From assembly GCA_035628535.1 (NCBI GenBank), contig DASPJQ010000833.1:1-38586 (forward strand): a DNA stretch of 38,586 nt. Direction: 5' to 3'. The position numbers and the translations under genes were made by a program. The first letter of the stretch is position 1. The number at the start of each line of letters is the position of its first letter. The notes beneath the pieces were generated by a model. It was not told the DNA's origin and did not search any database. It worked only from the letters and a program-made list of their open reading frames with translations. Positions 9,553 through 27,721 of the stretch are shown here, piece after piece. The stretch is from Flavobacteriales bacterium (GTDB taxonomy: Bacteria; Bacteroidota; Bacteroidia; Flavobacteriales_D; UBA2798).

Positions 9553-9699
9553 AAAAATATTAGTTTTAGCGACAACTTTTTTCCGAAAAGCCAATTTTAG
9601 TTTCCCAAATCGAATGTTTATGACAATTTGACACACTTGTGCCTTGTAATAGTAACGGCCTGATATTTGTCCCATTGACATACAAAACCACCTAAATTT

Positions 9700-11148
9700 A
9701 TGGCCAAATTTGACCAGCCTATTGAAAGTTTTATTAAAAAGTTTGTTACTGACTTAGAGGAGGGCAATGTTGCCATTTTTGCGGGAGCCGGCATGTCAGT
9801 ATCTGCTGGATTTGTAAACTGGTCCGAACTATTACGCGACATCGCGAACGATCTGCATTTAGATGTTGATAGGGAATGGGATTTAATCTCTATTGCCCAA
9901 TATCATTTTAACGAAAAGCGCAATAGAGATGCCATCAATCGAGCAATTTTAGAAGAGTTTTCAGCAAAAACCGAATCAACGGAAAACCACAGAATTTTAG
10001 CCAAACTGCCAATCCATACTTACTGGACTACCAATTATGACATTTTAATTGAGCAGGCATTGAAAGAGGCGTTTAAGATTGTTGATGTAAAATATGACAA
10101 AGACCAGCTTCAACTAGCCAAGCCTCGCAGAAACGCTACAGTCTATAAAATGCACGGTGATGTTGAGCATCCTACAAAGGCAATTATCACAAAACAAGAT
10201 TTTGAGACTTACCATAGGACCCATGAACCATTTATTACGGCTTTAAGCAGCGATCTCACATTCAAAACTTTTTTGTTTATAGGTTTCAGCTTTACAGACC
10301 CTAATCTGGACTACGTGCTTAGCAGGTTAAGCATCCAGTTTGGTGATAATGGCAGGCAGCACTACTGTTTTATTCGTAAGTGCAGCCGGGCAGATTATAA
10401 AACTGAGGACGAATATAACTATGAATTAAGGAAACAGACTTTAAAAGTAAATGATCTCAAACGATATAAAATTGAGGCTCTACTGATTGACAAGTATTCT
10501 CAAATTACTGAGATATTAAGTGAGATCGAGCAGCGTTTTAAAAAGCGAACAATTTTTATCTCAGGAAGCGCAGAAGAATATGGTACAATGGATTCTCATG
10601 CGGCCCAGAATTTTATTCATCAGCTCACTAAACAACTGGTCTTTAATGGAAACACAATAGTAAACGGTTTTGGCTTAGGAGTTGGTAGTGCGGTAATTAA
10701 CGGTGCTTTAGATGCCGTGTATGAGAAACCGCACAAGCATAGCGAAGAACAGTTAATAATGCGTCCATTCCCTCAATTTCCTACGGGTGATAAAGACCTC
10801 AAGGTTCTCTGGCGCGAATACAGATATAAAATGATCCCCTATGCGGGAATTTCTATTTTTATTTTTGGGAACAAGAAAGATCCTAAAACGGGTAAAATAA
10901 TTATTGCTAATGGTGTCCGGCAGGAATTTGAAATCGCCACTGAATTAGGACTTATTCCTATACCTGTTGCGGCCACTGGTTACATGGCTCAACAGATTTA
11001 TGAAATTGTAATGGCTGAACCTGGCAAATATTATAAGGCGTACGAACACCAGGTGGTGCCTATCATTAAGGAACTGTCGGACCCAAATCTTCAATCGGAA
11101 GAAATAATAAAAAAAATAATAGACATCATTAAAATTCTTAAAACCTAA
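9700..11148 (+). CDS. thsA: Thoeris ThsA, SIR2 NADase domain fused to a SLOG ligand-binding domain
   Basis: The N-terminal half carries SIR2 motifs FAGAGMSVSAGF, TTNYD and YKMHGD. The C-terminal half is a Rossmann-like SLOG domain (TIFISGSAEEYG, VNGFGLGVGSAVINGAL, FIFGN). The 482-aa size is ThsA-like, and three TIR genes follow. Confidence 0.85.
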   Translation: MAKFDQPIESFIKKFVTDLEEGNVAIFAGAGMSVSAGFVNWSELLRDIANDLHLDVDREWDLISIAQYHFNEKRNRDAINRAILEEFSAKTESTENHRILAKLPIHTYWTTNYDILIEQALKEAFKIVDVKYDKDQLQLAKPRRNATVYKMHGDVEHPTKAIITKQDFETYHRTHEPFITALSSDLTFKTFLFIGFSFTDPNLDYVLSRLSIQFGDNGRQHYCFIRKCSRADYKTEDEYNYELRKQTLKVNDLKRYKIEALLIDKYSQITEILSEIEQRFKKRTIFISGSAEEYGTMDSHAAQNFIHQLTKQLVFNGNTIVNGFGLGVGSAVINGALDAVYEKPHKHSEEQLIMRPFPQFPTGDKDLKVLWREYRYKMIPYAGISIFIFGNKKDPKTGKIIIANGVRQEFEIATELGLIPIPVAATGYMAQQIYEIVMAEPGKYYKAYEHQVVPIIKELSDPNLQSEEIIKKIIDIIKILKT

Positions 11149-11154
11149 AAATCT

Positions 11155-11643
11155 ATGGCTAGAAGAGTATTTTACAGCTTCCATTACGATAATGATAGCT
11201 GGCGTACCTCACAAGTACGTAACATTGGGGTTATTGAAGGTAACAGACCTGCACCAGACAATGACTGGGAAGCTGTTAAAAAAGGCGGTGATCCAGCAAT
11301 TAAAAGATGGATTGACAACCAAATGTATGGTCGATCCTGTACCATTGTTCTTGTAGGGTCCAATACTGCGGGAAGAAAATGGATTGAATACGAAATAAAG
11401 AAGTCCTGGGAAGAAGGAATGGGTGTTGTTGGAATTAGAATCCACAATCTTAAAAACTATGCTCAACAACAATCATATTGGGGGAATAATCCGTTCGCTT
11501 TAAGCGCAAATGGCATCTGGTTGGAGGACAAAATCAGTTTACATAATCCACCATATGTTGACAGTAAGGATGTTTATAATTATATAGCAGATAACATTGG
11601 AAATTGGACTGAGGAAGCAGTTAGAAACCGTAATAGGTATTAA
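11155..11643 (+). CDS. thsB: Thoeris ThsB, TIR-like (MTH538/DUF1863-type) protein
   Basis: It starts MARRVFYSFHYDND, with TIVLVGSNTAGRKWIEYEI carrying the conserved Glu context. It begins 7 nt after the thsA stop. Confidence 0.75.
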   Translation: MARRVFYSFHYDNDSWRTSQVRNIGVIEGNRPAPDNDWEAVKKGGDPAIKRWIDNQMYGRSCTIVLVGSNTAGRKWIEYEIKKSWEEGMGVVGIRIHNLKNYAQQQSYWGNNPFALSANGIWLEDKISLHNPPYVDSKDVYNYIADNIGNWTEEAVRNRNRY

Positions 11644-11645
11644 GT

Positions 11646-12194
11646 ATGTCAATTTTTACTAAAGCAAGTTTTGAGGCAGCAGCGAATAGAAATGCAGGAT
11701 ATAAAAATTTCAGGGCCTACCTTGAGGAAAACAGGAAGTCATATAGATCAACTAAAACAACTAGTGTTTTTTTATCGCACGCACATACTGATAAAGACAT
11801 TGTACAGCAAGCTGTGACTTTTTTTAGCACCCTTGGAATAAGTATCTATGTGGATTGGATGGATGAAACTATGCCTGATAAGCCCAACGGTGATACTGCT
11901 AAACGGATTAAAGACAGAATTCAAGCCAATGATAAATTCATTCTATTGGCTACGAATGCTGCGGTTGCCTCCAAATGGTGCAACTGGGAGTTAGGTATTG
12001 GCGATTTAAACAAATTCGATAAAGGAAAGCTAGCCGTTTTGCCTTTGGCGGATAACAGTGGCACATGGCAAGGAAATGAATACTTGCGGCTTTATCCGAG
12101 GATAGAGTACGGTTCCACGAATTCTAGTGATTTATGGGTTTGGCACCCAGATCGGTTTTTACCAGAATATTTAAGAACTTGGTTAATGAAATAA
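11646..12194 (+). CDS. thsB: Thoeris ThsB, classical TIR-domain protein
   Basis: Motifs VFLSHAHTDKD, FILLATNAAVASKWCNWELG and a TIR beta-alpha pattern are present. It starts 3 nt after the preceding stop. Confidence 0.75.
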   Translation: MSIFTKASFEAAANRNAGYKNFRAYLEENRKSYRSTKTTSVFLSHAHTDKDIVQQAVTFFSTLGISIYVDWMDETMPDKPNGDTAKRIKDRIQANDKFILLATNAAVASKWCNWELGIGDLNKFDKGKLAVLPLADNSGTWQGNEYLRLYPRIEYGSTNSSDLWVWHPDRFLPEYLRTWLMK

Positions 12195-12195
12195 T

Positions 12196-12813
12196 ATGGC
12201 AAGAAAGGTATTTTTCAGTTTTGCTTATGACGATGTCAAGAACTTTAAGGTTAATGTTGTTCGCCAAAGTTGGCTTTTAAATAAAGAAAATACATTTGTT
12301 GATGGTTCTATTTGGGAAACGGCAAAAAAAAAGGACCCTGAATCTCTCAAAAAACTGATAAATGAAGGGTTAAATAATACATCGGTTACCACCGTTTTAA
12401 TTGGAGAAGATACCGCAAATAGGACATGGGTCAACTATGAAATAATAAAGAGTTTTGACCGGGGAAATGGAATTCTTGGTATTCATATTAATAGAATAAA
12501 GGGGCGAACCGGATTAACAACCAGGGGACAAAATCCACTTGATCGCCTTGGACTTAAAATAGCTGAAGATGGCAGTAAAATATATTTCTTTGAGTTGTTA
12601 AAAAACAAATGGGTTCCCTATAATTATTTACCTGTGATTAACAATAAACAGTCGAACACTATTTATTTTGGGGATAGTTGGTGGAGTGGCAACCAGTGGG
12701 GTGAGTCTTTCCGATTCTCAGAACTTTTTGAAACGTACTGTTGGGCTTTCAATGAGGGATATACAAACTTTTCGGATTGGGTGGAGGCCGCAGCCAAGCA
12801 GGCCGGTAGATAA
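12196..12813 (+). CDS. thsB: Thoeris ThsB, TIR-like (MTH538/DUF1863-type) protein with C-terminal extension
   Basis: MARKVFFSFAYDD and TTVLIGEDTANRTWVNYEI make it a paralog of 11155-11643. It starts 2 nt after the preceding stop. Confidence 0.75.
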   Translation: MARKVFFSFAYDDVKNFKVNVVRQSWLLNKENTFVDGSIWETAKKKDPESLKKLINEGLNNTSVTTVLIGEDTANRTWVNYEIIKSFDRGNGILGIHINRIKGRTGLTTRGQNPLDRLGLKIAEDGSKIYFFELLKNKWVPYNYLPVINNKQSNTIYFGDSWWSGNQWGESFRFSELFETYCWAFNEGYTNFSDWVEAAAKQAGR

Positions 12814-14888: not shown

Positions 14889-15743
14889 CTAGCCAAAAAA
14901 ATAATCCCAAACATTAGATACAATGGCATACGATGAGCCTAAGAAACCACCTGCGAGTCCTCCTCCAAGCCAACCAGCAAAGGTGCCTACGCCCGGCAGA
15001 GTGACTGTGCCACCAGTATAACCTACATGGGCACCATAACAAAACCCCGCAGCATCGGCACCTGCAATACTTGCTTTTGCCGCATTACTATTGTCGCCAC
15101 CCTGACCGTTTGTTAACAAATCATTCCAATCATCAATATTGTCATTCCAGTAAGCGAAAGAGGCTTCAAAAACATCTGCTGTACCTTTACCTATTTCCTT
15201 TTCAGGCGATGACAGGTTGCTATTGCACCATGTTTTAAAGCCATTAGCAAGCGTGGTAGCCCCTGATGTACTCGTTACATTTAACGCATTATTCATAAAC
15301 GTGTTAAATCCGGTTCTGAAAGTTTGCGATAATGAGGTGCCAGCAATTGCAGTTCTTAAATCTGATAAGTTTGTAATACAACCGTCATTGTCATCAAAAT
15401 AATCACTGACAGCTATGGCATTATTGCGGTGATATGTTGCATCGTCACCTCCAATATTTTCATTAAGAATCGTTCTAATTGAGTTATCTAATTCGGTTTC
15501 ATCCATATTGCCAAAACCCTCCTCAGCCACATCAGCCGAAAGCTGGTCATATATAAGACCCATATAATAGTTATGCCATTCGCCTGCTCCATTTTCATCA
15601 AGAGTAACTTGTGGCATGTCTTTTAATACCATGTTAAAATGGCCACCGGTTTGTGATGGATTAGCAGACATTGGTTTTTCTTCCTTTGAGCAAGCCGCAA
15701 GTAAAAGGCTGCCCACAAATAAACTTAAAATTGATTTTTTCAT
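14889..15743 (-). CDS. lipoprotein with C-terminal glycine-zipper segment
   Basis: It has a lipobox (LLLAACS) and an acidic, Asn-rich body. The last ~60 aa read AGFCYGAHVGYTGGTVTLPGVGTFAGWLGGGLAGGFLGSSYAIVSNVW (GxxxG repeats). Confidence 0.7.
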   Translation of the reverse strand: MKKSILSLFVGSLLLAACSKEEKPMSANPSQTGGHFNMVLKDMPQVTLDENGAGEWHNYYMGLIYDQLSADVAEEGFGNMDETELDNSIRTILNENIGGDDATYHRNNAIAVSDYFDDNDGCITNLSDLRTAIAGTSLSQTFRTGFNTFMNNALNVTSTSGATTLANGFKTWCNSNLSSPEKEIGKGTADVFEASFAYWNDNIDDWNDLLTNGQGGDNSNAAKASIAGADAAGFCYGAHVGYTGGTVTLPGVGTFAGWLGGGLAGGFLGSSYAIVSNVWDYFFG

Positions 15744-15882
15744 TTTTGGATTTTTTAATTAAATACTTTGTTGCTTAGAGACTTTTTTCTGGCAGAAAAA
15801 AGTCAAAATTTTTACATAGCTCGCTTTGTAATTACCTCCTTTCTTTACTTAATTTAAATAAGGAGCGAGGGTACTTACATAA

Positions 15883-15997
15883 CCTGTGAGTGCGGAGTCA
15901 AAGCCGTTGTAACAGATTAAAGTAATACCCACGCCATAATGTGCGTATTGCCTAATTCTCCCGTTACAATTGTAAACTTTGACTTTTCACTCCCAGG
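15883..15997 (+). ncRNA. candidate structured RNA (or DNA hairpin) element, copy 1
   Basis: The hairpin has four tiers. P1 is cctgtgagtg/cactcccagg. P2 is agtcaaag/ctttgact. P3 is gttgtaac/gttacaat. The apical stem is aatacccacg/tgtgcgtatt. It has the same architecture as copy 2 but different stem sequences. Strand is uncertain; G-U pairs slightly favour plus. Confidence 0.45.
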
Positions 15998-16091
15998 AGA
16001 AGCAATATTTAATTTTTTCTTTCTTAATTATTTTATGCGTTTATATCTTTTAAATATCCCCTAAAAAAATCAGCGTGGGTTAGTTACAATG

Positions 16092-16209
16092 CTTGTTGTA
16101 GAAGGGGTACGAAACCCTTGCAGACAAGTAAAGTAACGCCCACGCCTTACGTGAGCGTTAACCATAACTCGCCTGTCTGCTTTGAAATTTCGTACTTTTC
16201 TACAACAGG
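16092..16209 (+). ncRNA. candidate structured RNA (or DNA hairpin) element, copy 2
   Basis: P1 is cttgttgtagaa/ttctacaacagg. P2 is gtacgaaa/tttcgtac. P3 is gcagacaag/cctgtctgc. The apical stem is aacgcccacg/cgtgagcgtt. The junction TAAAGT, the apical CCCACGCC, the NGG bulge and the TT(T) bulge are shared with copy 1. Confidence 0.45.
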
Positions 16210-16315
16210 TCCGCTTTAGCTAAACGCTATTCCTTAATATTATCTATGCAGCTCTTTGCTGCTCCTTGCATCAACTAAATAAAGAAAAAAAAGAGTATCT
16301 CCAACAAGACACTCA

Positions 16316-16357
16316 AAAAATGCGTAGAAATACGGTAAAAATGCGTAGAAATACGGT
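16316..16357. promoter_or_regulatory. perfect 21-bp tandem direct repeat (aaaaatgcgtagaaatacggt x2), iteron/operator-like
   Basis: The two units span 16316-16336 and 16337-16357, a 21-bp period equal to two helical turns. Confidence 0.6.
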
Positions 16358-16457
16358 TGTCCATATTTTTAAATTCCTTCACTAAACATTTGATTTTCTT
16401 TATACAAATCTTTTTTTTCTTTTAACCATATTAAATACAATTTGTAGTGGTTAGGAA

Positions 16458-16489
16458 TTACGGTAAACGACCGTATTTTGCGCATTTTT
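16458..16489. promoter_or_regulatory. inverted copy of the 21-bp repeat overlapping a tacggt/accgta palindrome
   Basis: accgtattttgcgcattttt (16470-16489) is the near reverse complement of the repeat unit. tacggtaaacgaccgta forms a palindrome. A further TACGGT lies at 16535-16540. Confidence 0.5.
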
Positions 16490-16541
16490 CGGACTTGCTT
16501 TTAGCACTTAAATTTTTTTAGGACGGGACATTGTTACGGTC

Positions 16542-16579
16542 ATGTGATAAGTATGTGAAGGGAATGTGAAGGGCATGTG
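16542..16579. repeat. four ATGTG motifs phased at exactly 11 bp
   Basis: ATGTG starts at 16542, 16553, 16564 and 16575 (catgtgataagt atgtgaaggga atgtgaagggc atgtgt). Confidence 0.55.
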
Positions 16580-16818
16580 TATTTAATGCGTTACGATGCG
16601 ATAAGCATTTGTCTGCCAAGTGTTAAAATTAGCGAAACCACAATTCAGTTGCGCCTGGAGAATTACACATGTAAGAAATCAGAAAAAAATGTATTTCGCA
16701 CGTCTAAACCATTAACTTATTTTGCTGTAATAATGCAGGATAAATGAAAGTACCGCTAACTGCTTTGAAATCCAGTTATTATTTTTAAATTTTGTATAAA
16801 CCTAAATTAAACTATATT

Positions 16819-17106
16819 ATGTTAGTAGTTACTGAAACACCTGTAGAAGTCCGCAATTACACTATCGGAGAACTGGCGCAAAAGTACGGCATTGATCCAC
16901 GAACCTTGCGTAAGAGACTGGAGCCATTTTCAGAAAAACTTGGAAAGATTATCCGCGGGCAACTGGATTACCACCAGGTATTGATTATCTTTAAGGAATT
17001 AGGCCCGCCCGGTGTAAAGGTTGTAGAGGAATCGTTAGTGGATGGATTTACCGTTGTATGCCTTGAAAAAAACAAAACAATGTACGTGTTGCCAAAAGTG
17101 GCATAA
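16819..17106 (+). CDS. small HTH-like protein (DUF4248-like), first gene of the rightward block
   Basis: YTIGELAQKYGIDPRTLRKRLEPFSEKLGK...QVLIIFKELGPP is paralogous to 17680-17910. The ATG at 16819 is preferred to the TTG at 16792. Confidence 0.6.
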   Translation: MLVVTETPVEVRNYTIGELAQKYGIDPRTLRKRLEPFSEKLGKIIRGQLDYHQVLIIFKELGPPGVKVVEESLVDGFTVVCLEKNKTMYVLPKVA

Positions 17107-17299: not shown

Positions 17300-17656
17300 A
17301 TGAAATATCAAAACACCCGTGTTGTACATCCCCAGACTATGCGTTTCTGGGTAAACAATACATTAGATTTCGCTTGCGGCCTGTTGTGGCCGGGTCAAAA
17401 ATTTTCACTCCTGGAAATGCGCTGCGCCCGCAAAGGCATTGAGGAGTATTACAATCAAATCCCGCCAGAAGATTTTGCCGGGCAGATCGAAAATGAATTT
17501 TCCATTATGTGTCTGCGGATTAGTTTTCTGTCTCTTTCCTCCAGTCACATATTACCGCCATCGGAACTGTTCAGCCCTAGTCATCCCGGCAACATCGTTT
17601 ATAAAAAGCGTAATATTTTCACCACGTTCGGCCCGGTATACTATAGCCTGAACTAA
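17300..17656 (+). CDS. hypothetical protein (weakly supported ORF)
   Basis: This 118-aa ORF lies between the two HTH paralogs. I recognised no motifs and there is an overlapping alternative-frame ORF, so coding status is uncertain. Confidence 0.35.
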   Translation: MKYQNTRVVHPQTMRFWVNNTLDFACGLLWPGQKFSLLEMRCARKGIEEYYNQIPPEDFAGQIENEFSIMCLRISFLSLSSSHILPPSELFSPSHPGNIVYKKRNIFTTFGPVYYSLN

Positions 17657-17679
17657 CTAAACCAAACCATTTTTCTCTT

Positions 17680-17910
17680 ATGGAATTAACACCCAAACAG
17701 GGTGAAGGGACTACTATTGCCCTGAAACCCTACTCCACGCAGGAGCTGGCAGACCTGTACGGCATATCGGTACATACATTCAAAAAGTGGATCGCGCCTT
17801 TCAAAGAATCGCTCGGAAAAAAAATAGGCTGGTACTGGAGCATTCCCCAGGTGAAGATCATTTTTCAAAAACTTGACCTGCCCAGCGTGATTGTCATACC
17901 AAACAACTAA
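17680..17910 (+). CDS. small HTH-like protein (DUF4248-like), paralog of 16819-17106
   Basis: YSTQELADLYGISVHTFKKWIAPFKESLGK...QVKIIFQKLDLP aligns motif for motif with the first copy. Confidence 0.6.
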   Translation: MELTPKQGEGTTIALKPYSTQELADLYGISVHTFKKWIAPFKESLGKKIGWYWSIPQVKIIFQKLDLPSVIVIPNN

Positions 17911-18052
17911 GAAGTACATGCAATTTTCTAAAACAGTTTATACAAAACGATACAAAAACAAAAGTACTGAGCAAAGCGCAAACCCATGTCAGGACACGGT
18001 TTCATCTTTGTACCCTGAATTGATAACAACACATAAACACACACCTCAAATT

Positions 18053-18247
18053 ATGGACATGAGAACGCAACAGGACACCAGCACCAATATATTTCTCACC
18101 GCAGCCGTGGTGCTGGCTAACGTAGATTATTCGGGCCTGCTCGAATACGGGTTAAAGGCAGCAATAGGCGGCATGATATGGATGGGCTTTAAGCTGGCAG
18201 GCGATGGTATCAGCAATTACTTACGCAAACGCAACACAAAAAAATGA
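18053..18247 (+). CDS. small membrane protein
   Basis: From MDMRTQQD there is one hydrophobic/glycine-zipper helix (AAIGGMIWMGFKLAGDG) and a basic tail. Its stop overlaps the next start (ATGA). Confidence 0.45.
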   Translation: MDMRTQQDTSTNIFLTAAVVLANVDYSGLLEYGLKAAIGGMIWMGFKLAGDGISNYLRKRNTKK

Positions 18248-18738
18248 AGACCTGGGCAAAGTGGACCATTGGTTTGGGAACAGTTGGTGTAGGTACATTA
18301 TGCGTGTACCTGTACAGGCTCAGTAAAACCAATAACGGGCTTGATGTTATTCCAAGTGTGCGTGTGCATTCCCTTTACCCTTTCACGCTGGCGATTGATG
18401 CTGAAATCAAGAATCCGACCAACACAGCCATTACAGTTATGCAACCTTATGTAAAACTGTTTTACAAAGATACCCCGGTAGGTACATCAAACCTTGTGAA
18501 TACTGAAATACCCATACCCAAATACGGAAGTGTCAAACTGCCTCAGCCGATCATGCTGACTATACCGCTGCTTGGGTTGTTTTCCATTGGTGGTACGCTG
18601 CTGAATGATCTTACAAGCGGGCAGCCCATCAAATTAAAAGTTCAGCCCTTTACGAGCCTGAAAACACCCGTGGCGTGGAAAACAATTACGCTTGACCCGC
18701 TTGAAATAACCCTGAATAACCCTGCGCCCAAAGCATGA
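18244..18738 (+). CDS. membrane-anchored LEA_2/NDR1-like beta-sandwich protein
   Basis: An N-terminal TM (WTIGLGTVGVGTLCVYLY) is followed by a beta-rich domain with the pattern IDAEIKNPTN...V...LFYKDTPVG typical of LEA14-like folds. The call is from memory. Confidence 0.5.
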   Translation: MKTWAKWTIGLGTVGVGTLCVYLYRLSKTNNGLDVIPSVRVHSLYPFTLAIDAEIKNPTNTAITVMQPYVKLFYKDTPVGTSNLVNTEIPIPKYGSVKLPQPIMLTIPLLGLFSIGGTLLNDLTSGQPIKLKVQPFTSLKTPVAWKTITLDPLEITLNNPAPKA

Positions 18739-20717
18739 CCGCAACCGAAGGAAAATATAACACGCTAAGTCTTGCGCCCTACAGGCGCCTGTTCCCGCCT
18801 GCGCGCGTGGTTGACATCACGGTGAAAAAAAGTGCAGACGTGTCGGACACGGTGGCCTTCATTCCTGAGATCATCAGTCAAACGCGCTGGCAGGTAAAGG
18901 ATTTTGTGGAGACAGAACTGAGGGGCATGTCAACCGAGGATGCACTAATTAAATTATGGTATTGGGTCAAATGCCACATTCCATACGCGCCTGACCAGCG
19001 CGGTAAAGAGCAGGTAAAAACCCCGCGCAGGACGGTGCATGATGCCTGGCAGGGCAAAGGCTCGGATTGTGACGACATGACCACATTTGTTTCCTGCTGC
19101 GCAAGCTGGCTGGGTGGAATTAAAGAAATAATTCATACGATCTCCAAATACGGAGGCTCTGGCTGGCAGCACATTTACCCAACGGTCATTTTACGCAATG
19201 GCAAAAGGATTATCATGGACTGCGTAACAGATGCCTACAATTATGAAAAACCACCAACACAAAGAGAAGAACACATTATGGACTTAGAATTATTAGATGG
19301 AATTGACGACTGGAACGAGCTTGGCAAACTGAATTTAAAGAGCGTTGTTCAGAATGTTACCAGTGCTGTAAAAACCGCTGCCAGCAATGCGGGTAATGCC
19401 ATCCAGACAGCCGTTAAGAAAACAGGCGAAGCAATCAAGGATAAAGCGGATGATATACTGCACGCTGTCAACAAGGTTAATCCTGCAACTGTCCTTCTGC
19501 GCAACGGTGTGCTGGCTGCCATGAAGGTAAACATGATGAATGTGGCGGGCCGCCTGCGCTGGGCATACCTGTCTGATGCCAACGTTGCCAAAAGCGGCAT
19601 TGACAAAGGCAAACACGACAAACTCAAAAGCATTATGGCTAAACTGGAAGATATTTTCCACGGAGCCGGGGGCGAACCCAAAAACCTGAAAGCGGCTATA
19701 CTGGAAGGTAAGGGCAACAAAGATCATTCAGTCGCGGGACTGGACACCTTGAGTATTTATTCGCCCCTGTCTGAAGTACTGGGACCTGAGATATACCACG
19801 AAGAATATGCCAGCGTGCAGGGATTAGGTGAGCTGGGTGAAGTGGCAACAGCCACCAGCATGGCAGCAGCCACGGGAGCCATAGCCACGATTGCGGCATT
19901 GATTAAGCAGATTGGGAACCTGTTTCCCAAGGGAACGCCTGGGGCAGCAGATTTTGATGCAGGAGACTCAGAAACACCCGATGCACCCGGCACCCCTTCC
20001 ACTGCCTCGATCCTCACCACGATTAGCAGTGCAGTCAATACCGTTAAACAGGTTTTGCCTGTTGTGCCCGGCAAACCTGTAGTGCCGCCTCCAACGCACG
20101 GGCCGGTATATGTGACAAAAGAACTGCCCGCGTTGGTTGCTCCCGCTAAAACAGGTGTTTCATTGACTCAGCAGCGTAACGGGGCCGTCCCAGCAGCACC
20201 CGCAGTCACTACACAGTTTTCCCCTCAAACCCTTCCCGTGCAAGACGAAAACACGCAGGTTTTTGTAAAGCCCACGGTTGCACCGCCACAAAATTTTGTG
20301 CCCATGCCCGATGATGCTGTAAAACCTGCCACAAACACCGATGATAAAAAACCTGCCGCAAAACCTTCGTGGGTGCTGCCCCTTGCCATCGGGGGCGGAA
20401 TCCTTGTACTGGCAGGAGCAGGCTACATGATCTACCGTGCCTCGCAAAAAAAGAAGCTGAAAGGCCATAGCAGCGATGCTGTAGACGGAACGGGTGATGA
20501 GATGGGCTATGTACTGGTTGAGGAAACAAGCCCGTCAGAAACGCCCAAAAAGCCTGAAACGGAAACAAGCCCGCTTGAAGGTTTTGTACTGGTAGAAGAA
20601 ACAAACCCCACGCAAGCACCACTAAAAGCAGAATCCAGCCCGCCCGAAGGTTTTGTACTGGTTGAGGAAACAAGCAACGAAGAACCTGAGCAGCTAACGG
20701 CAGTACCACTTATGTAA
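18735..20717 (+). CDS. transglutaminase-like cysteine protease domain protein with Pro/Ala-rich linker, TM anchor and triple (G/E)G(Y/F)VLVEET tail
   Basis: A Cys-His-Asp context is present (GKGSDCDDMTTF ... WQHIYP ... IIMDCVTD). The TM helix WVLPLAIGGGILVLAGAGYMIY is followed by RASQKKKLK. Three repeats read GYVLVEETS, GFVLVEETN and GFVLVEETS. Confidence 0.65.
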   Translation: MTATEGKYNTLSLAPYRRLFPPARVVDITVKKSADVSDTVAFIPEIISQTRWQVKDFVETELRGMSTEDALIKLWYWVKCHIPYAPDQRGKEQVKTPRRTVHDAWQGKGSDCDDMTTFVSCCASWLGGIKEIIHTISKYGGSGWQHIYPTVILRNGKRIIMDCVTDAYNYEKPPTQREEHIMDLELLDGIDDWNELGKLNLKSVVQNVTSAVKTAASNAGNAIQTAVKKTGEAIKDKADDILHAVNKVNPATVLLRNGVLAAMKVNMMNVAGRLRWAYLSDANVAKSGIDKGKHDKLKSIMAKLEDIFHGAGGEPKNLKAAILEGKGNKDHSVAGLDTLSIYSPLSEVLGPEIYHEEYASVQGLGELGEVATATSMAAATGAIATIAALIKQIGNLFPKGTPGAADFDAGDSETPDAPGTPSTASILTTISSAVNTVKQVLPVVPGKPVVPPPTHGPVYVTKELPALVAPAKTGVSLTQQRNGAVPAAPAVTTQFSPQTLPVQDENTQVFVKPTVAPPQNFVPMPDDAVKPATNTDDKKPAAKPSWVLPLAIGGGILVLAGAGYMIYRASQKKKLKGHSSDAVDGTGDEMGYVLVEETSPSETPKKPETETSPLEGFVLVEETNPTQAPLKAESSPPEGFVLVEETSNEEPEQLTAVPLM

Positions 20718-20745
20718 AAACATTTAAACACGAAATAAAACAAAT

Positions 20746-21408
20746 ATGAGCAATAATTCTTACGAAAAGAAAGCCGTCAAAAAAGGTCTGCTTGGCTCGG
20801 TCAACGAAAGCCCGGCAACCAAGGGCAATATTTCATCCACACTCACACAAACCGGGCTTGACCTGCTTTTGGGAGGCATTGCAGGCAGCTTTGTGGGGAG
20901 CCTTGCAGGACGATATTCCCTGCTTGGCGGGGCAGTGGTAACTGGCGCAAGCTATTACATGGGAAGCCGCTTAGGAGCATCCTTTGGCATCGGTATCATG
21001 TCGGGAGGATATTTCAGCATCGTAAACGGTGTAGGTAGTCTTGAAGGGACAACAATGGACAACATCAAAGCGCGCTCCAAGGTGTTTGCCGAAGGTCTGA
21101 AACAAAAACTATTCCTGGACAAGATTCTCAAAAGCAAAAAAACCGATGCTGCCACAACAACCACTTCTGCGACTGCGGCACAATCCCAGCCTGTAAGCGG
21201 AACCGAACAGGTACGGTATTTCATGTACCCCCAAAGCGATGCGCAGGTGCAGGGACCGGGCGAGCTGGATATGTCTGCCCTTGACCGCCTCAATGCACAG
21301 GTAGCCGAAAGCGCAAAGGCATATAAAGCCCAGTCCAAAGAGAATCCGCAGCAGGTTTCAGGACTTGCAGGCGTACTTGGTGACCTGCTCACAGAACGCA
21401 TACTCTAA
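20746..21408 (+). CDS. glycine-zipper membrane protein
   Basis: LLLGGIAGSFVGSLAGRYSLLGGAVVTGASYYMGSRLGASFGIGIMSGG is followed by a Thr/Ala-rich, helical C-terminal half. Confidence 0.6.
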   Translation: MSNNSYEKKAVKKGLLGSVNESPATKGNISSTLTQTGLDLLLGGIAGSFVGSLAGRYSLLGGAVVTGASYYMGSRLGASFGIGIMSGGYFSIVNGVGSLEGTTMDNIKARSKVFAEGLKQKLFLDKILKSKKTDAATTTTSATAAQSQPVSGTEQVRYFMYPQSDAQVQGPGELDMSALDRLNAQVAESAKAYKAQSKENPQQVSGLAGVLGDLLTERIL

Positions 21409-21516
21409 CCCCCGAAGAAAATATCAAAACACTTTCCCGCTGGGGCCAACACCTATAGCGAGCAGGGATAACTCACGCATAAAAATTTAAAAAACACACA
21501 TTAAAACACACACATT

Positions 21517-22236
21517 ATGTTAGGATTATTAGAAGGCATTGACGAGTACAACAACGCAGGTGCGTTGCTCGGACTTGAAGGATTGGACAACGATGAGCTG
21601 CTTGGCGCGCTCAGGCAAATGAATCCTTTGCAGCGGCAAAAGACCATCAACAAACTGACCGCCCCTCCGGTAGCCTCCAAAGGCTCAAGGGCCGAAATGG
21701 AAAAACATTTCGCTGAACTACCCGACCACATCCGGGAAGGACTGCTCAAAGGTGAACTACGTTTGGCCGACACCGTTATTTACAGCATCAAACCCGTGCT
21801 TGGCCTGACCACAAAATTTTTTGAGACGCAGGATGATATGGAGAAGGGACTGCGCTCGGTGAGCAACGCCAAGCTCCAACGCGGACAGGCGCTGCTGGTT
21901 TCAGGTATCATCATGCTTGCGGGCGTTTCAGCAGACGCAACCAAGGCAAAAGTAATCGGCACCGCATATGACAAAATTGAAACGTTCCCGGCTATTGCCA
22001 ATGGTGAATTTTCCCTGAAGGCAAACAAAAAGCAGATCGTACCTGACACCTCCAACAACGTCTTCAAGACCTCCAACATGAACATGGTCCCCATCGGGTA
22101 TTACAAGCTGGCAAACCCGCGCATCATTCCCGATGATGTCCAGATCGAATTCACTATGGAACTTGGGTCGATGGAAGCCATCGCAGCCAATACACACGTG
22201 TTTGTCGGATTGCACGGCACAATTACAACACCTTAA
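21517..22236 (+). CDS. candidate major structural (capsid-like) protein
   Basis: This 239-aa protein has a helical acidic N-terminus and a beta-rich C-terminal ~150 aa (ANGEFSLKANKKQIV...YYKLANPRIIPDDVQIEFTMELG...HVFVGLHGTITTP). It follows a 108-bp gap and is followed by a hairpin. The function is inferred only. Confidence 0.45.
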   Translation: MLGLLEGIDEYNNAGALLGLEGLDNDELLGALRQMNPLQRQKTINKLTAPPVASKGSRAEMEKHFAELPDHIREGLLKGELRLADTVIYSIKPVLGLTTKFFETQDDMEKGLRSVSNAKLQRGQALLVSGIIMLAGVSADATKAKVIGTAYDKIETFPAIANGEFSLKANKKQIVPDTSNNVFKTSNMNMVPIGYYKLANPRIIPDDVQIEFTMELGSMEAIAANTHVFVGLHGTITTP

Positions 22237-22263
22237 CCCACACACCATACCCACACACACTAG

Positions 22264-22300
22264 CAGACCCGCTATCTGGAAAAAGACGCGGGTTTGCTTT
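22264..22300 (+). terminator. possible terminator/attenuator hairpin
   Basis: The stem is cagacccgc/gcgggtttg with one G-U pair and a 14-nt loop. The downstream T-tract (ctttc) is weak. Confidence 0.3.
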
Positions 22301-22319
22301 CACCAAAAACACTTAAACA

Positions 22320-22694
22320 ATGAGTAAAACGCTTAAAAAACGCTTCGATATTCTGGTTACCGATGAGGAAGGCAAGTTTTCAGAAACCTTTGAACTGGAC
22401 AAGGACATTACGGCAGTTAAAGGTCTGCTGCTGGCTTCTGACCGTGATGACCTGCTTTATTTCAGGGGCAGCCAGAAAATCCAGATCAATTCCGAAGAAA
22501 TTTTCCCCGAAGACTACGAATCAAAACTGCTCATGTCGGGCATTAACGTAGCCCCTGGCGAACGGTTTTATGACTTAGGTGGAGTTGGCACGGGCAACCG
22601 CGTAGTTAAGGTGGAATTTAAAGACAACCAAACCACTCAGGCAAGTTTTGAGCCTTACAGGGTATCGCTTTACCTGGACTGTATCACCAATTAG
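22320..22694 (+). CDS. hypothetical beta-rich protein (candidate structural)
   Basis: This 124-aa product shows an alternating beta-strand pattern (VVKVEFKDNQTTQASFEPYRVSLYLDC). Confidence 0.55.
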   Translation: MSKTLKKRFDILVTDEEGKFSETFELDKDITAVKGLLLASDRDDLLYFRGSQKIQINSEEIFPEDYESKLLMSGINVAPGERFYDLGGVGTGNRVVKVEFKDNQTTQASFEPYRVSLYLDCITN

Positions 22695-22704
22695 TTGTAA
22701 GATC

Positions 22705-23175
22705 ATGTTCAGGGATAAAGTCATATCACGTAAAATCATAGTCAACAATCAGGAAATGGTGTATTTCTCCATTCGCCTGCCGGATAATGCCACTCAGATG
22801 ATCGGTGTTGAATATGGCGTAAGGTTTTTAGGAGACGTGTCATTACCGGAGTCAGCCGATAGCCACGTCAGCAGTTTTGCAATTGCGCTGCCTGTAACTG
22901 TGGGCAACTTAAGGCTGGAGCATCCCGGATGCAGCGGACTGTTTTATTCAACAAGCGTAAAAGCTCCTGATACCCTTATAGGCTTCGGTGATTTTTCTAT
23001 AGCGGCCTTGTTTAAGCCGCAGGTTTTCACCCACGCAAAAAAAAACCTTGAAGATCCTGTACTGGTTCCAAAACAGGCAAGATTGATTACTGGTATTTAC
23101 CAAAACATAGCACGCACCAGACATGAACTTTTGGTGCACCTGTGGTATGCTATCGGAAAAGGAGGTACAGCATGA
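22705..23175 (+). CDS. hypothetical beta-rich protein (candidate structural)
   Basis: The ATG at 22705 (MFRDKVISRK) lies 11 nt after the previous stop. The stop overlaps the next start. Confidence 0.55.
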   Translation: MFRDKVISRKIIVNNQEMVYFSIRLPDNATQMIGVEYGVRFLGDVSLPESADSHVSSFAIALPVTVGNLRLEHPGCSGLFYSTSVKAPDTLIGFGDFSIAALFKPQVFTHAKKNLEDPVLVPKQARLITGIYQNIARTRHELLVHLWYAIGKGGTA

Positions 23176-23525
23176 ATGCCGCTATCATTCCTTTTTACAT
23201 CGACAGCCGCATGAAAGAGCAGGGCCATTGCAACGGTTACGTCATGCGGGTAAAACATTACGTGATTGGCCCGCGCCAGACTGTTAAGGTCCCGGCTTAC
23301 GGTGAAATTTTTATCCTGCTCGAACCTGTACCCGATGTGAAGATAGAAAGTGATTTAGGTGTTTTCTCCAATACTGGAATGGCACCGGAGCAGCAGCATG
23401 AACACACCGGGCAGATTCTACTAACCAACCTGAGCAGTAACGGTAATTGCGACGTGCAGTTTGTTCAGGCCATTCCTTTAGATGCACACCCTGAGGATTG
23501 CACACCCTGTAATAATACCCAATAA
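23172..23525 (+). CDS. hypothetical beta-rich protein (candidate structural)
   Basis: The ATG at 23172 is preceded by aaggagg and overlaps the upstream stop (ATGA). The product has a cupin/jelly-roll-like strand pattern (GEIFILLEPVPDVKIESDLGVF...GQILLTNLSS...VQFVQAIP). Confidence 0.55.
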   Translation: MNAAIIPFYIDSRMKEQGHCNGYVMRVKHYVIGPRQTVKVPAYGEIFILLEPVPDVKIESDLGVFSNTGMAPEQQHEHTGQILLTNLSSNGNCDVQFVQAIPLDAHPEDCTPCNNTQ

Positions 23526-23527
23526 CC

Positions 23528-24340
23528 ATGAGAGAAAAATTTGAACAAAATAAAGTAAACCTGCTCCAGCGCTATTTACAACAGCAGGCAGAAAAGAATG
23601 CCTCAAGGTATTTTGAAATATACGTGGACAACCTCAAGGTCGTGCCAAAGACCAATGACGTAAACGAGTTTGAGACCTATCATGAGTTTATTACGCCCGA
23701 TACTAAGCTGCTCAAAATATTGATTTATTCCACCTCTGCTACTTCTCCCAGGAACGAGCCGCATTATTACTATTTTGCTGACGAAAACCCTGTGCAGCCT
23801 GCGGTGCAGACATTAAGCGGGGTTGAGATTGACCAGCGGCTGAGTGAAAAAATTTCAGCCGAACGGCAAAAGTGGGAGGCAGACCAGCAGGCGAAAGAAT
23901 TTTCCGAAACACGTAAAAAACTTTCCGAAGCCGAAGAATACATAGAGAAGCTGGAAAGCCAGCTAAGCGAATACAAAGGCAAAAAGTTGCACTGGGGCGA
24001 TGTGAATCTGGGGGAACTGGCCTCAGTGATGCTCGAAGGTTTTGTAAGGCGCAACCCGCAACTGCTCGCCAAACTGCCGGGAGGTGAAAATCTGGCAGGC
24101 ATTATTGAGATGGACAACAAGGAAAAATTACAGATTTCCCAGCAGCCCGTTGCAGAAGCCAGTTTTTCAAAAAAGAGCGATGAAGTCTCGGCAGAACACG
24201 GGCCGTACATCCAACTGTTAAAACAGCTTGAAACCTGTTTTTCGCAAGGGGATTTAAACACGGTCATGAAAATACTCGGTGTGCTCATTGAGCAACCCCA
24301 GCACCTTCCCACAGTAGCAGACCTGTTAGGCATCAACTAA
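23528..24340 (+). CDS. coiled-coil protein (scaffold-like)
   Basis: The central region is a long charged helix (SEKISAERQKWEADQQAKEFSETRKKLSEAEEYIEKLESQLSEYKGKK). The function is inferred. Confidence 0.55.
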   Translation: MREKFEQNKVNLLQRYLQQQAEKNASRYFEIYVDNLKVVPKTNDVNEFETYHEFITPDTKLLKILIYSTSATSPRNEPHYYYFADENPVQPAVQTLSGVEIDQRLSEKISAERQKWEADQQAKEFSETRKKLSEAEEYIEKLESQLSEYKGKKLHWGDVNLGELASVMLEGFVRRNPQLLAKLPGGENLAGIIEMDNKEKLQISQQPVAEASFSKKSDEVSAEHGPYIQLLKQLETCFSQGDLNTVMKILGVLIEQPQHLPTVADLLGIN

Positions 24341-24378
24341 CCGCAACTCCATCACCATTCACGCACAAATAATTCAAT

Positions 24379-24561
24379 ATGAGCAAATTTACCTACAACA
24401 TCACCCTTTCAGCGGTGAGTGAAAAAGAAGCTGAATCAAAAATGCGCGCGCTTACAGTGCTGGCAGCGCGCCTTACTGAAAAGGAAATTTCCAAACTGGC
24501 CGACATCATTCAAAACGACCCGCAAAAAACTGCCCTGGCAAAAAAAGCACTCGGAGTTTAA
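24379..24561 (+). CDS. small helical hypothetical protein
   Basis: This 60-aa ORF is in the operon frame and lies 3 nt before the next start. Confidence 0.45.
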   Translation: MSKFTYNITLSAVSEKEAESKMRALTVLAARLTEKEISKLADIIQNDPQKTALAKKALGV

Positions 24562-24564
24562 TCC

Positions 24565-25356
24565 ATGACCACACCCGCAACCACATATCCATCCGTTCCC
24601 GCCCAGACTGGCATTGCACCCGTATCGCCCAATGCAGTGCCAATGCCTGCTGTGGTTCCTGCGCAATATGTGGCGCCTTACGCTACTGTGCCACCTGCTA
24701 ATGCAGCAAGTCAAAAATCCTCTATAAAGGAAACGGTGATTTACGGATTGATTGGTGTGGCGGGTGCAGGGATTACTTTTTTACTGCTGCGCAAGGTGTT
24801 CCGTGATTTCCGCTCAGGACTGGAAGAAAAAAAGAGTATGGACACGGGCAGCGAAGCCAACACAGCCAAGCAGATTAACAAAGCCCTGTACGATTACTGG
24901 ACCGGAACTGACGAGGAAGAACTGCGCAGGATACTGAGCAGTGTCAAATCACAGCAGCAATGGCAAAAGATCGGGAATTCCTACCACAGCATGTACAACA
25001 AATACCTGATGACGGCACTGGAGGAGGAATTGTCAACCACGGAGTTTAACGAAATGAACGCGATCATAAACTCCAAGCCGGACAAGGAAGGCGGTGCCGT
25101 GGCTTCGGAGGTGCAGATAGCCAACTGGGCAAAACGCCTCAATGCCGCAGTCAACCTTTGGTACTTGGGAATGATACCGGGAACGGATGAGGCAGCGATT
25201 AAAGCCGTGTTCATGGAAATACCTTCCCAATCGGTTTACGCTAAGGTTGCGGGCAAATACGAAGCGGAGTATGGCACCAAATGGCTCGATGACTTAAAAG
25301 GTGATATGGACGATTGGGACGATTATATAAAGATCATTACAGCAAAACCACATTAA
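24565..25356 (+). CDS. single-pass membrane protein
   Basis: A Pro/Ala-rich N-terminus precedes a TM helix (VIYGLIGVAGAGITFLLL) and a helical C-terminal domain. Confidence 0.6.
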   Translation: MTTPATTYPSVPAQTGIAPVSPNAVPMPAVVPAQYVAPYATVPPANAASQKSSIKETVIYGLIGVAGAGITFLLLRKVFRDFRSGLEEKKSMDTGSEANTAKQINKALYDYWTGTDEEELRRILSSVKSQQQWQKIGNSYHSMYNKYLMTALEEELSTTEFNEMNAIINSKPDKEGGAVASEVQIANWAKRLNAAVNLWYLGMIPGTDEAAIKAVFMEIPSQSVYAKVAGKYEAEYGTKWLDDLKGDMDDWDDYIKIITAKPH

Positions 25357-25358
25357 AC

Positions 25359-26339
25359 ATGCAAACAGTACAAACCCATGATACAGTTATGCCGGGTGCA
25401 ACCTCTGCGGCAAATCCGGCAACCGCTGCGCTGGTTCCTGAAAAAAAGAAGAACAGTAAAGTAAGAGCAGCCATCATTGGGGTGAGTGTGGTGGCGGCTG
25501 GGGTTTGCGGGTATTATTTTTTGTGGCCGCTTTTCAGGCGCAAAGGCACCTCAAATAACAGCAGCGTTGCACCGCAAGCCACCAGTAACACTTCAACCCA
25601 AACCAACAGCTACACCCCTTCCCAAACCAGCACTGCACCTGCAAAATCTGTTACCCCGGCACGAAACGATAATTTTCCTCTGAAGCAAGGCAGTAAAGGA
25701 CCAAACGTAACCATGCTTCAAAACGCGCTTATTGCCAGATATGGCAAAAGTATCCTGCCCAAATACGGTGCTGATGGAGATTTTGGAGCAGAAACAGTTG
25801 CCGCATTGAAAAGCAGGGGACTTTCCACGCCAGTAGATCAGGCAACATTTATTTCACTCACCGAAGGAACTAAAATAGATCCTGTTCAGTACGCCAAAAA
25901 CATTGCAGCGGCTGTACTATTGGGATTCGATAAAGTGCTGCCCTTGCTTCAAAAGATTAAAACAGCCCAGCAGTACAAGGACGTTTCCAACCAGTTCAAG
26001 GAAATACGTATAGGACTTATCCGTTACCAAAGCCTGCTTTCTGCCATGTTTCGCCTTTATACAGAATCAGGCCAGCAAAGCCAGTTAAGAAAGGCATTCA
26101 CAAACATGGGCTTAATCTATAAACCCGATGAGGATACCTGGAAGCTGCCTGATAATCTTTCGGGGTTTGAATTAATCACTACGCAGATCACGCACGTGTG
26201 GCCCGATCCCCAAACTGCTGTCCAGGTACCACCCAACATGGTACTGGGGCAGGAAATCGGGCGGCAGGATGATTTTGTCGCATTTGAAAACGGGGGACGC
26301 AGATTCCTTGTACCTGCTGCACATGTGCGCTATACCTGA
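25359..26339 (+). CDS. membrane-anchored peptidoglycan-binding domain protein
   Basis: A TM helix (AAIIGVSVVAAGVCGYYFLW) and a Ser/Thr linker are followed by a PG_binding_1-like repeat (LKQGSKGPNVTMLQNALIARYG...DGDFGAETVAALKS). Confidence 0.7.
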   Translation: MQTVQTHDTVMPGATSAANPATAALVPEKKKNSKVRAAIIGVSVVAAGVCGYYFLWPLFRRKGTSNNSSVAPQATSNTSTQTNSYTPSQTSTAPAKSVTPARNDNFPLKQGSKGPNVTMLQNALIARYGKSILPKYGADGDFGAETVAALKSRGLSTPVDQATFISLTEGTKIDPVQYAKNIAAAVLLGFDKVLPLLQKIKTAQQYKDVSNQFKEIRIGLIRYQSLLSAMFRLYTESGQQSQLRKAFTNMGLIYKPDEDTWKLPDNLSGFELITTQITHVWPDPQTAVQVPPNMVLGQEIGRQDDFVAFENGGRRFLVPAAHVRYT

Positions 26340-26371
26340 CACTTTTTTTAAACACCTAAAATCTATCAATT

Positions 26372-26824
26372 ATGAGGCTAATACGCTACATCGCGGTACA
26401 CTGTACCGACACCCTTGCATCAGCAACGGTTGAATCCATTAAGAACTACTGGAAAAATCACCTGAAATGGAAACGTCCCGGCTATCACTACATCATCAAG
26501 GCCGATGGCGAGGTGGTAAAGCTGCTTGACGAAGAAAAAATTTCAAATGGCGTTTTGGGTTTTAACCCTGTTACGGTAAACATTTGCTACATCGGTGGCC
26601 GCACAAAGGAAAAAACCAAAATTGATACGCGTACCGAGGCGCAAAAAGAATCCATGTTTGACCTGCTGGTTGAACTTTCCGAGCGATACCCTGAAGCAGA
26701 GATCAAGGGACATTGCGAGTTTCCCGGTCAGGGGGGCAGGACCTGTCCCAACTTCAATGTGAAGGAATGGCTTAGGAATTACACGCCTAAACTGGAGGAC
26801 AACGACCTGGATATTGCCGCTTAA
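26372..26824 (+). CDS. N-acetylmuramoyl-L-alanine amidase (amidase_2/PGRP, T7-lysozyme-like)
   Basis: Motifs IAVHCTDT, GYHYIIKADGEV, NICYIGG and GHCEF...TCPNFNV are present. Confidence 0.85.
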   Translation: MRLIRYIAVHCTDTLASATVESIKNYWKNHLKWKRPGYHYIIKADGEVVKLLDEEKISNGVLGFNPVTVNICYIGGRTKEKTKIDTRTEAQKESMFDLLVELSERYPEAEIKGHCEFPGQGGRTCPNFNVKEWLRNYTPKLEDNDLDIAA

Positions 26825-27480: not shown

Positions 27481-27499
27481 ACTTTTAAATCCATACACA

Positions 27500-27721
27500 A
27501 TGAAACAAAACGAAAAAAACAAAACAAAACGCGATGAACTGAATGCCTTCCTTGATGAACTCAGCCAAATCCTGCTTGGTTCACTCAGGGAAATTCTTTC
27601 AACTGAGCCGTCAAGGGAACAACAGTCACCGCCATCGCCTGAACCCCCGCTGGTGATACAGGTCGTTTTCAAACCAAAGAAAGGGGGAATTCTGCGCAGG
27701 TTTATCAACTGGCTCTGGTAA
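27500..27721 (+). CDS. small hypothetical protein
   Basis: This 73-aa product has a charged N-terminus and an SPPSPEPP segment. It is adjacent to the next start. Confidence 0.4.
   Translation: MKQNEKNKTKRDELNAFLDELSQILLGSLREILSTEPSREQQSPPSPEPPLVIQVVFKPKKGGILRRFINWLW

Follow-up and report, generated by a model that had tools for sequence, protein, structure and literature searches.

A Bacteroidota family of structured RNAs, represented by two tandem hairpins upstream of a lipoprotein gene, as candidate 5' leaders of genes for exported proteins

Transcription attenuators and riboswitch platforms occupy the 5' leader between a promoter and its gene and have two conserved pairings that exclude each other, one of them ending in a U-tract; in some riboswitches the arrangement occurs in tandem. 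RNAs of the 6S, 6S-Flavo (RF00013, RF01685) and Ms1 types are ~200 nt long, have their own promoter and form one long interrupted helix with paired ends, and in E. coli the 6S RNA is followed by a co-directional gene (ssrS-ygfA). A long imperfect duplex is also found in the 5' leaders of E. coli pnp and rnc, where cleavage by RNase III controls the mRNA, and in the lambda N leader. At the level of DNA, integron attC sites form imperfect hairpins of ~60-130 nt in which structure is conserved over stem sequence and certain unpaired bases are fixed. Bacteroidota, to our knowledge, lack Shine-Dalgarno-led initiation and most classical chaperones of small RNAs (sRNAs), and we know of few cis-regulatory RNAs that have been characterized in this phylum. 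Rfam holds Flavo-1 and other structured motifs restricted to Bacteroidota, often in 5' regions, and Flavo-1 matches have been found in 5' transcribed regions of Flavobacterium psychrophilum (PMC9723704). The present analysis concerns a stretch of 38,586 nt from a Flavobacteriales bacterium (the whole of contig DASPJQ010000833.1, assembly GCA_035628535.1; hereafter the window), in which two tandem hairpins, el1 and el2, stand upstream of a minus-strand gene for a 284-aa lipoprotein.

The two hairpins (Table 1) lie in a gap, 15744-16791, that contains no open reading frame (ORF) of at least 60 aa. As read from the sequence, each is ~115 nt long and consists of four tiers, P1, P2, P3 and an apical stem; the stem sequences of the two copies are unrelated, while the layout is common to both. 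Read on the plus strand, both hold TAAAGT, the apical CCCACGCC and one mismatch at the identical position of the apical stem, which runs aatac/gtatt in one copy and aacgc/gcgtt in the other. As plus-strand RNA, el1 has a minimum free energy (MFE) of -42.3 kcal/mol (shuffle mean -18.8, z = -7.6) and el2 one of -48.3 kcal/mol (shuffle mean -24.3, z = -7.2), with 0 of 200 shuffles folding equally well; as minus-strand RNA the values are -42.9 and -54.0 kcal/mol, equal to or better than those of the plus strand. The sequence features listed for both hairpins in the original prediction, which had been drawn from the letters of the window, were all found at their coordinates. Its separate 'NGG' and 'TT(T)' bulges, however, sit opposite each other and form a single internal loop, with G.U pairs on the plus strand and A/C mismatches on the minus strand, and the shared apical mismatch is C.A in plus-strand RNA only, the minus strand forming a U.G wobble there. 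At 58% identity, el1 and el2 are as distant from each other as any two members of the family described below, and the structural intactness of both despite 42% divergence argues that both are maintained.

Relatives were collected with exact-pattern scans, for which the conserved junction and apex (TAAAGTAANNCCCACGCC...YGTG) supplied the pattern. A scan of 185,579 species-representative genomes gave six matches, all in Bacteroidota metagenome-assembled genomes (MAGs) and all forming the same four-tier hairpin with different stems; a metagenome scan gave seven further true copies and one GC-rich chance match, and one more copy, at the locus L148, was found through synteny. The resulting alignments comprise 14 distinct copies, including the window's two (L016 duplicates L015), which represent ~8 lineages at ≤80% identity; the 12 distinct copies from outside the window all come from Bacteroidota MAGs or metagenome contigs. 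A covariance model, R1, recovers every known copy at 104-185 bits, with no additional match in the window or in the 89 kb of carrier sequence, where each locus has one copy, and with no match in 678 kb of viral DNA that holds the apex motif by chance. Pattern scans of viral contigs returned chance matches only, and blastn against phage and plasmid records returned none. Searches of Rfam 15 gave 0 matches at the gathering threshold across the whole window, chance-level miRNA and snoRNA matches only in 15700-16850 at E≤10, and nothing on the element in the 12 homologous loci at E≤1; in contrast to the Flavo-1 regions of F. psychrophilum, neither the window nor these loci matched Flavo-1 or any other family. 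The claim that no RNA family fits was upheld by these searches, which assigned the region to no known family. The hairpins are members of a small structured-RNA family that is absent from Rfam and has so far been found only in Bacteroidota.

The pairs of this structure covary across homologues. RNAalifold identified compensatory double changes in 20 of 35 pairs. In a model-based alignment of the 14 copies, 92.5% of cells form standard pairs, against 36-43% in a control with partners slid by 1-3 columns; 23 of 43 pairs are changed on both sides (shuffle mean 13.6, with 0 of 500 reaching 23), and the covariation score of 0.442 compares with 0.156 in shuffles, none of 500 reaching it. Nearly all of the double changes fall in P1, P2 and P3, and the apical stem is near-invariant, as are several loops, which in the minus-strand sense read GAAA/CCUC, UUCAA/GGG and UUACUUUA. 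These counts argue that the structure is under selection, which had been proposed from the window's two copies and is borne out by the strong covariation across all 14.

Folding and genomic arrangement both point to the window's minus strand as the one that would be transcribed. At essentially every locus the gene on the element's plus-sense 5' side lies on the opposite strand, and the element, when reverse-complemented, therefore stands directly upstream of a co-directional gene; its orientation relative to that gene is identical in 14 of 14 copies. The minus-sense fold is at least as stable in all 14, with a mean advantage of 5.5 kcal/mol, in a test that is free of alignment bias. The minus sense also has 49 G.U cells to 14 A.C cells, a count that leans on a covariance model built in that sense. 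The -7 promoter motif (-7 box) of Bacteroidota is TAnnTTTG. An exact copy is present upstream in the minus sense in nine of the ten non-window loci with a full 220-nt flank, at 68-92 nt in seven of these, several of which have a TTG ~20 nt earlier; the background is 0.11 per 220 nt, and in the opposite sense the motif lies upstream of one copy in 14. No TAnnTTTG was found in the leader between the box and the start codon.

The conserved unit, at ~175-200 nt, is larger than the hairpin itself. In the minus sense a small hairpin, UUAGC-GUUU-GCUAA, precedes the long one, and 3' of the long hairpin come UUGUCCCACGCU, at the conserved CCCACGC box, and then a U-run; their distance from the apex core is fixed at +46 to +54 nt. 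In most copies, el2 included, the global MFE structure of the whole unit is one long rod of ~55-60 base pairs with conserved internal loops, to which two helices contribute beyond the long hairpin. In P0a, the box and U-run pair with the small hairpin's 5' arm and with the A-rich stretch that precedes it (for example AAUUAGCGU/ACGCUGAUU and, in another sequence group, CAUAAAAAGCGU/ACGCUUUUUUAUG); in P0b, the 3' arm of the small hairpin pairs with the linker (UUGCUAAGC/GUUUGGUGA or CUUUUA/UAAAGG), and UUGUCCC forms a conserved 7-nt bulge between the two helices. In an alignment unfitted to these helices, P0a is 84% and P0b 72-80% paired, with seven pairs changed on both sides; the small hairpin, which competes with and excludes P0a and P0b, is 98.5% paired, with double changes in two pairs. 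The U-tract does not wholly follow the closing helix but lies partly within it. A G-rich segment, GxGGGACA, located 20-35 nt before the start codon, shows complementarity to the bulge and box as well; the box's partner segment lies 19-38 nt beyond the box, and its pairing stands ~2-5 standard deviations above shuffles in 9 of 12 boxed copies. The original prediction had given the coordinates of the long hairpins, but its boundaries called for correction: the box, U-tract, 5' hairpin and closing helix had been overlooked.

Other arrangements of the same segments were considered and set aside. Pairing of the apex's 3' arm with the box to form a terminator reaches -13 to -19 kcal/mol, but the partners are near-invariant and the variants in el1 and at L027 are uncompensated. 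A plus-strand pseudoknot, in which an upstream GCGTGGG would pair with the apical CCCACGC, was dropped after the strand tests, the box fitting better as the 3' strand of the closing helix. A conserved small ORF within the unit was likewise rejected, as the 9-codon ORF in question is confined to one clade.

At the homologous loci a same-strand ORF starts 40-110 nt past the U-run. The products include proteins with LamG, immunoglobulin-like (Ig) and type IX secretion system (T9SS) sorting domains, a BNR-like and a leucine-rich-repeat-like T9SS protein, small lipoproteins, an outer-membrane-like protein, a zinc-ribbon membrane protein and the lipoprotein of the window; every one of them, except the product at L019, where the RNA copy is degenerate, begins with a signal peptide, a lipobox or a membrane segment. 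The RNA is linked to exported proteins in general. At L014, L016 and L018 the leaders are 92-96% identical, and the T9SS proteins have their C-terminal halves, with Ig-like and sorting domains, in common and differ at their N-terminal domains (BNR-like versus LamG), a pattern that suggests domain swapping in a T9SS surface protein behind the leader. L024 and L017 are the same locus from two samples, with an extra gene for a 126-aa zinc-ribbon membrane protein between leader and T9SS gene in L024; an earlier reading of the pair as one leader on different genes was wrong.

In one clade the RNA and its gene are flanked by recO on one side and by two aldehyde dehydrogenase genes on the other, and a HigBA pair is present at some of these loci. 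At four related loci, where RecO is 60-67% identical, searches with filters off found no RNA, and other genes directly follow recO, the dehydrogenase pair doing so in two of the four. A second, distant lineage, with RecO 33% identical, also has the RNA beside recO, and this recurrence may mark an insertion hot spot. RNA and gene together form an accessory module, and a housekeeping RNA beside recO was rejected because the sister lineages are without the insertion of RNA and gene. Long near-perfect inverted repeats (arms to ~24 bp, z = -8.5), unrelated to the RNA family, stand right after recO at L018:3728-3816 and L148:1640-1760; they adjoin the HigB/HigA (Gp49 and HTH_3) pair, which occurs in either orientation in close relatives. 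At L025 a short ORF with the start MKKLFLVDAYALIYRSYYAF lies ~200-300 nt upstream of the RNA and ends just before the RNA's promoter. Its start resembles the N-terminus of the 5'-3' exonuclease of DNA polymerase I, and the ORF may represent part of a gene, cut off at the edge of an insertion.

The reading that we prefer, and to which we would give an even chance of being correct, is that each hairpin is the core of a minus-strand, cis-acting 5' leader or attenuator, and that two of these stand in series before the lipoprotein gene. It builds on the conserved structure and its covariation, the strand preference, the promoter motif, the association with genes and the competing helices. A full member runs from a canonical Bacteroidota promoter sequence (TTG...TAnnTTTG) through ~45 nt, the small hairpin S1:S2 (UUAGC/GCUAA), the long four-tier hairpin, the linker S5, the UUGUCCC bulge, S6 (CACGCU) with the U-tract and the G-rich segment to the AUG of a gene for an exported protein. 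Two mutually exclusive folds are conserved: in one, S1 pairs locally with S2; in the other, S1:S6 (P0a) and S2:S5 (P0b) zip the whole RNA into the rod, the closing helix of which runs into the U-tract and has the shape of an intrinsic terminator. This terminator/anti-terminator interpretation is proposed because the helix runs into the U-tract and competes with the upstream hairpin for one strand. The rod would stop transcription, or otherwise silence the message, ahead of the gene. If S1 were instead kept in the small hairpin, through a protein, a ligand or a kinetic effect acting on the conserved loops, polymerase would read through, and in the resulting mRNA the bulge and box could pair with the G-rich segment beside the start codon. 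In the window, el2 and then el1 would act like tandem attenuators. A tandem cis-regulatory leader of the lipoprotein gene was among the suggestions of the original prediction, which had folded the plus strand; the leader is favoured by the evidence, which points to the minus strand, the gene's own.

Comparison with described attenuators and riboswitches brings out both sides of this proposal. At the homologous loci the RNA stands between promoter motif and start codon, and in the window it precedes a co-directional gene without an exact -7 box; a helix with a U-tract and a competing pairing that shares one of its strands are present, although the long-range helix is atypical. Unlike known members of these classes, the RNA matches no known aptamer, its putative terminator helix closes a rod of ~150 nt rather than a local hairpin, and its genes encode unrelated exported proteins rather than the steps of one pathway.

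Table 1. Features of the tandem units and of the adjoining gene in the window
Feature	Positions	Strand	Basis or note
Intrinsic-terminator-like hairpin with eight U, directly upstream of el2	16293-16314	minus	sequence
el2 unit, upstream copy, 5' segment through U-tract	16062-16235	minus	cmsearch with R1, 124 bits, E 2e-22
el2 small 5' hairpin UAGC-GUUUA-GCUA; 5' arm doubles as 5' strand of P0a; candidate anti-terminator	16217-16229	minus	covariation and alternative-pairing count
el2 long hairpin: P1, P2, P3, apical stem GCUCACG/CGUGGGC, then invariant UUACUUUA	16092-16209	minus	folding, covariation
el2 3' segment: CUAAC bulge, CCCACGC box (16073-16079), seven-U run (16063-16069)	16063-16084	minus	sequence and fold
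el1 unit, downstream copy, nearest the gene	15854-16013	minus	cmsearch with R1, 103.8 bits, E 2e-18
el1 long hairpin	15883-15997	minus	folding, covariation
el1 box variant CCCUCGCU (15864-15871) paired with AGCGAG (15820-15825)	15820-15871	minus	sequence reading and duplex energy
Second helix CUCCUU/AAGGAG inside the el1 box:AGCGAG pairing	15860-15865 with 15836-15841	minus	sequence reading
-7 promoter box with one mismatch, AAATTTTG, between el1 and lipoprotein gene	15804-15811	minus	promoter-motif scan
Perfect 12-bp palindrome GACTTTTTTCTG-G-CAGAAAAAAGTC in 5' region of lipoprotein gene, operator-like or hairpin	15780-15804		sequence
Lipoprotein gene, 284 aa, lipobox LLLAAC, Gly-rich C-terminus, ATG 15743-15741	14889-15743	minus	downstream of both units

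Along the minus strand of the window the order is terminator-like hairpin, el2, a 48-nt AU-rich stretch, el1, two nested helices, the near -7 box, the palindrome and the gene. The 3' segment of el2 is the 3' strand of the P0a closing helix and a candidate terminator, and the hairpin upstream of el2 would insulate the units from minus-strand transcription arriving from further upstream. The el1 unit has a degenerate 5' part, the box variant CCCUCGC and no clean U-tract, and the one-mismatch -7 box that follows it may be the lipoprotein gene's own promoter.

Several observations weigh against an attenuating leader. The families of downstream genes are mutually unrelated and the RNA is not tied to any one gene; for the window's lipoprotein a single homologue was found (50% identity), and its gene is not preceded by an RNA of this kind. 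Most of the double changes seen in the competing helices, P0a and P0b on one side and the small hairpin on the other, reflect a single split between two sequence groups and hence few independent events. L019 lacks the box, and L026, L027 and el2 lack a complementary G-rich partner. The strands of the putative terminator are ~170 nt apart, which is unusual, and are joined only once the rod zips. Finally, an exact -7 box is missing upstream of both window copies, el2 is directly preceded by a terminator-like hairpin, and the stretch from el1 to the gene contains a near-consensus -7 box, a layout under which the units are perhaps weakly transcribed or the gene is expressed independently; it is possible that in this genome the lipoprotein gene is driven mainly from the proximal promoter-like site.

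An unlikely competitor is a stand-alone, rod-shaped minus-strand sRNA of ~200 nt with its own promoter and terminator, which would act in trans by binding a protein, in the manner of 6S or Ms1, or by base-pairing, and for which the gene would be a bystander or a recipient of incidental read-through. It would account for the consensus promoter upstream, for a closing helix that unites the 5' and 3' ends before the U-tract, and for an RNA that is kept between lineages while the downstream genes are unrelated, as it would for the RNA's recurrence directly behind recO in two lineages that share only 33% RecO identity. A bystander, however, would hardly be so regular as a same-strand gene without an intervening promoter is at these loci, nor would it be expected to encode exported proteins or to carry a conserved complementary segment past the U-tract, 20-35 nt from its AUG. 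The models of 6S and 6S-Flavo RNAs gave no match at E≤10; the element shares a closing stem with 6S RNA but has no large central bubble, its largest internal loop measuring ~8-10 by 3-5 nt; it is also accessory and sporadic rather than housekeeping, being absent from the four related loci of sister lineages, and the window holds two diverged adjacent copies of it. The sRNA pair of the original prediction stands as a rival in this minus-strand form and loses ground in its plus-strand form, considered below.

Somewhat less probable is a cis-acting leader that would work through processing or stability, its interrupted duplex serving, by analogy with the pnp and rnc leaders, as a target for RNase III, or for another nuclease or protein, and so setting mRNA half-life or translation. 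A rod of ~55-60 bp with conserved internal loops, in the position of a leader and with its U-tract partly inside the closing helix, would suit such a role. On the other hand, the box and U-run look like a terminator, a simple nuclease site would have no need of competing pairings of the 5' hairpin and closing helix, and the RNase III leaders have no counterpart to either of these conserved features.

Transcription of the opposite strand, giving a pair of trans-acting plus-strand sRNAs divergent from the lipoprotein gene, is very unlikely. In its favour, the plus strand has a very good fold of its own, it alone has the two invariant G.U pairs (GG opposite UU), and in the plus sense the long hairpin is followed by a small one with a U-rich tail; yet the plus-strand fold is the weaker in 14 of 14 copies, the promoter box is upstream in one of 14, and P0a and P0b depend on many G.U pairs, which become A.C there.

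A function as single-stranded DNA, which the original prediction had offered as a single-strand origin or a packaging or recombination site, has fared worse still and is a distant prospect, whether as an origin or priming site, an Frpo-like promoter, an attC-like site or a site for packaging the integrated element next to it. The window pair does lie within a probable 28-kb island with an integrase, it adjoins repeat-rich non-coding DNA, and as DNA either strand can fold. But most homologues are in chromosomal settings (beside recO, purD or aldehyde dehydrogenase genes, on contigs of up to 340 kb) without nearby replication or transfer genes, their orientation relative to promoter and gene is fixed, and searches of viral contigs, phage records and plasmids yielded no copy. 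The integron attC site, of all known systems, comes closest to the original description of the hairpins; unlike it, the element has stem bases that vary freely without the R'/R'' consensus (GTTRRRY/RYYYAAC), an invariant apex where attC apices vary, and a fixed position relative to promoter and start codon, with neither an integron integrase nor a cassette array. The sole integrase near the hairpins is a phage-type tyrosine recombinase ~20 kb away. As the original prediction had stated, neither a reverse transcriptase nor TnpB is evident: no such domain was found among the ORFs scanned near the window pair, and no reverse transcriptase domain, as a retron would call for, among those scanned at the homologous loci, some small ORFs having been left unscanned. 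Least credible of all is a functionless repeat, such as a miniature inverted-repeat transposable element, a REP-like palindrome or an invertible promoter segment, for although the element has the form of an inverted repeat and shares its neighbourhoods with other long ones, each locus outside the window has a single copy, with no extras in the 89 kb of carrier sequence, the stems vary by compensatory changes around invariant loops, and all 14 copies share one orientation relative to the gene.

The surroundings of the hairpins in the window have features of their own. An exact 13-nt direct repeat, AAAACCACCTAAA, occurs at 9684-9696, before the genes of a Thoeris anti-phage system, and at 38003-38015, beyond a tyrosine integrase gene (36705-37877); the two copies are candidate attL and attR sites of a 28-kb island enclosing the hairpins, a statistically weak assignment (E 0.24), and a search for att-site repeats between the hairpin region and the integrase end found nothing. 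The Thoeris system (9700-12813) comprises ThsA, with SIR2 and SLOG/STALD domains (9700-11148), and TIR-like ThsB proteins (11155-11643 and 12196-12813). On the other side of el2, a 21-nt direct repeat, AAAAATGCGTAGAAATACGGT, is present in two exact copies and a partial inverted copy 100 nt away, together with a doubled ATGTGAAGGG (16316-16357, 16455-16489 and ~16553-16577); these repeats, which look like operators or iterons, lie upstream of a small gene (16819-17106) for a MerR-like helix-turn-helix protein that has no homologue but itself among 5.8 billion clustered proteins. Searches of viral contigs with this protein and with the lipoprotein gave nothing useful. From ~17300 to 32500, tightly packed plus-strand genes of higher GC content (0.45-0.51) and positive AT skew are almost all without a family match, the exceptions being endolysin-like or peptidoglycan-binding proteins (25314-26339, 26824-27480), RadC (30068-30673) and an ATPase (30654-32456). 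This block could be an unusual prophage-like element.

The window's hairpins are members of a new structured-RNA family of a familiar general kind. Taken to its most specific form, the reading of the element as a minus-strand cis-acting leader would make it a new, Bacteroidota-specific RNA switch that gates accessory surface and secreted proteins through the long-range terminator of a ~150-nt rod, answers a protein or small-molecule signal at its invariant loops, and is carried together with its gene, as a portable module of promoter and leader, by genomic islands and prophage-like elements; this fuller proposal is put forward tentatively, as one more likely wrong than right. The covariance model R1 can be used for annotating more copies. 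The RNA is a testable candidate for switching accessory surface genes in Bacteroidota, including T9SS cargo with variable N-terminal domains.

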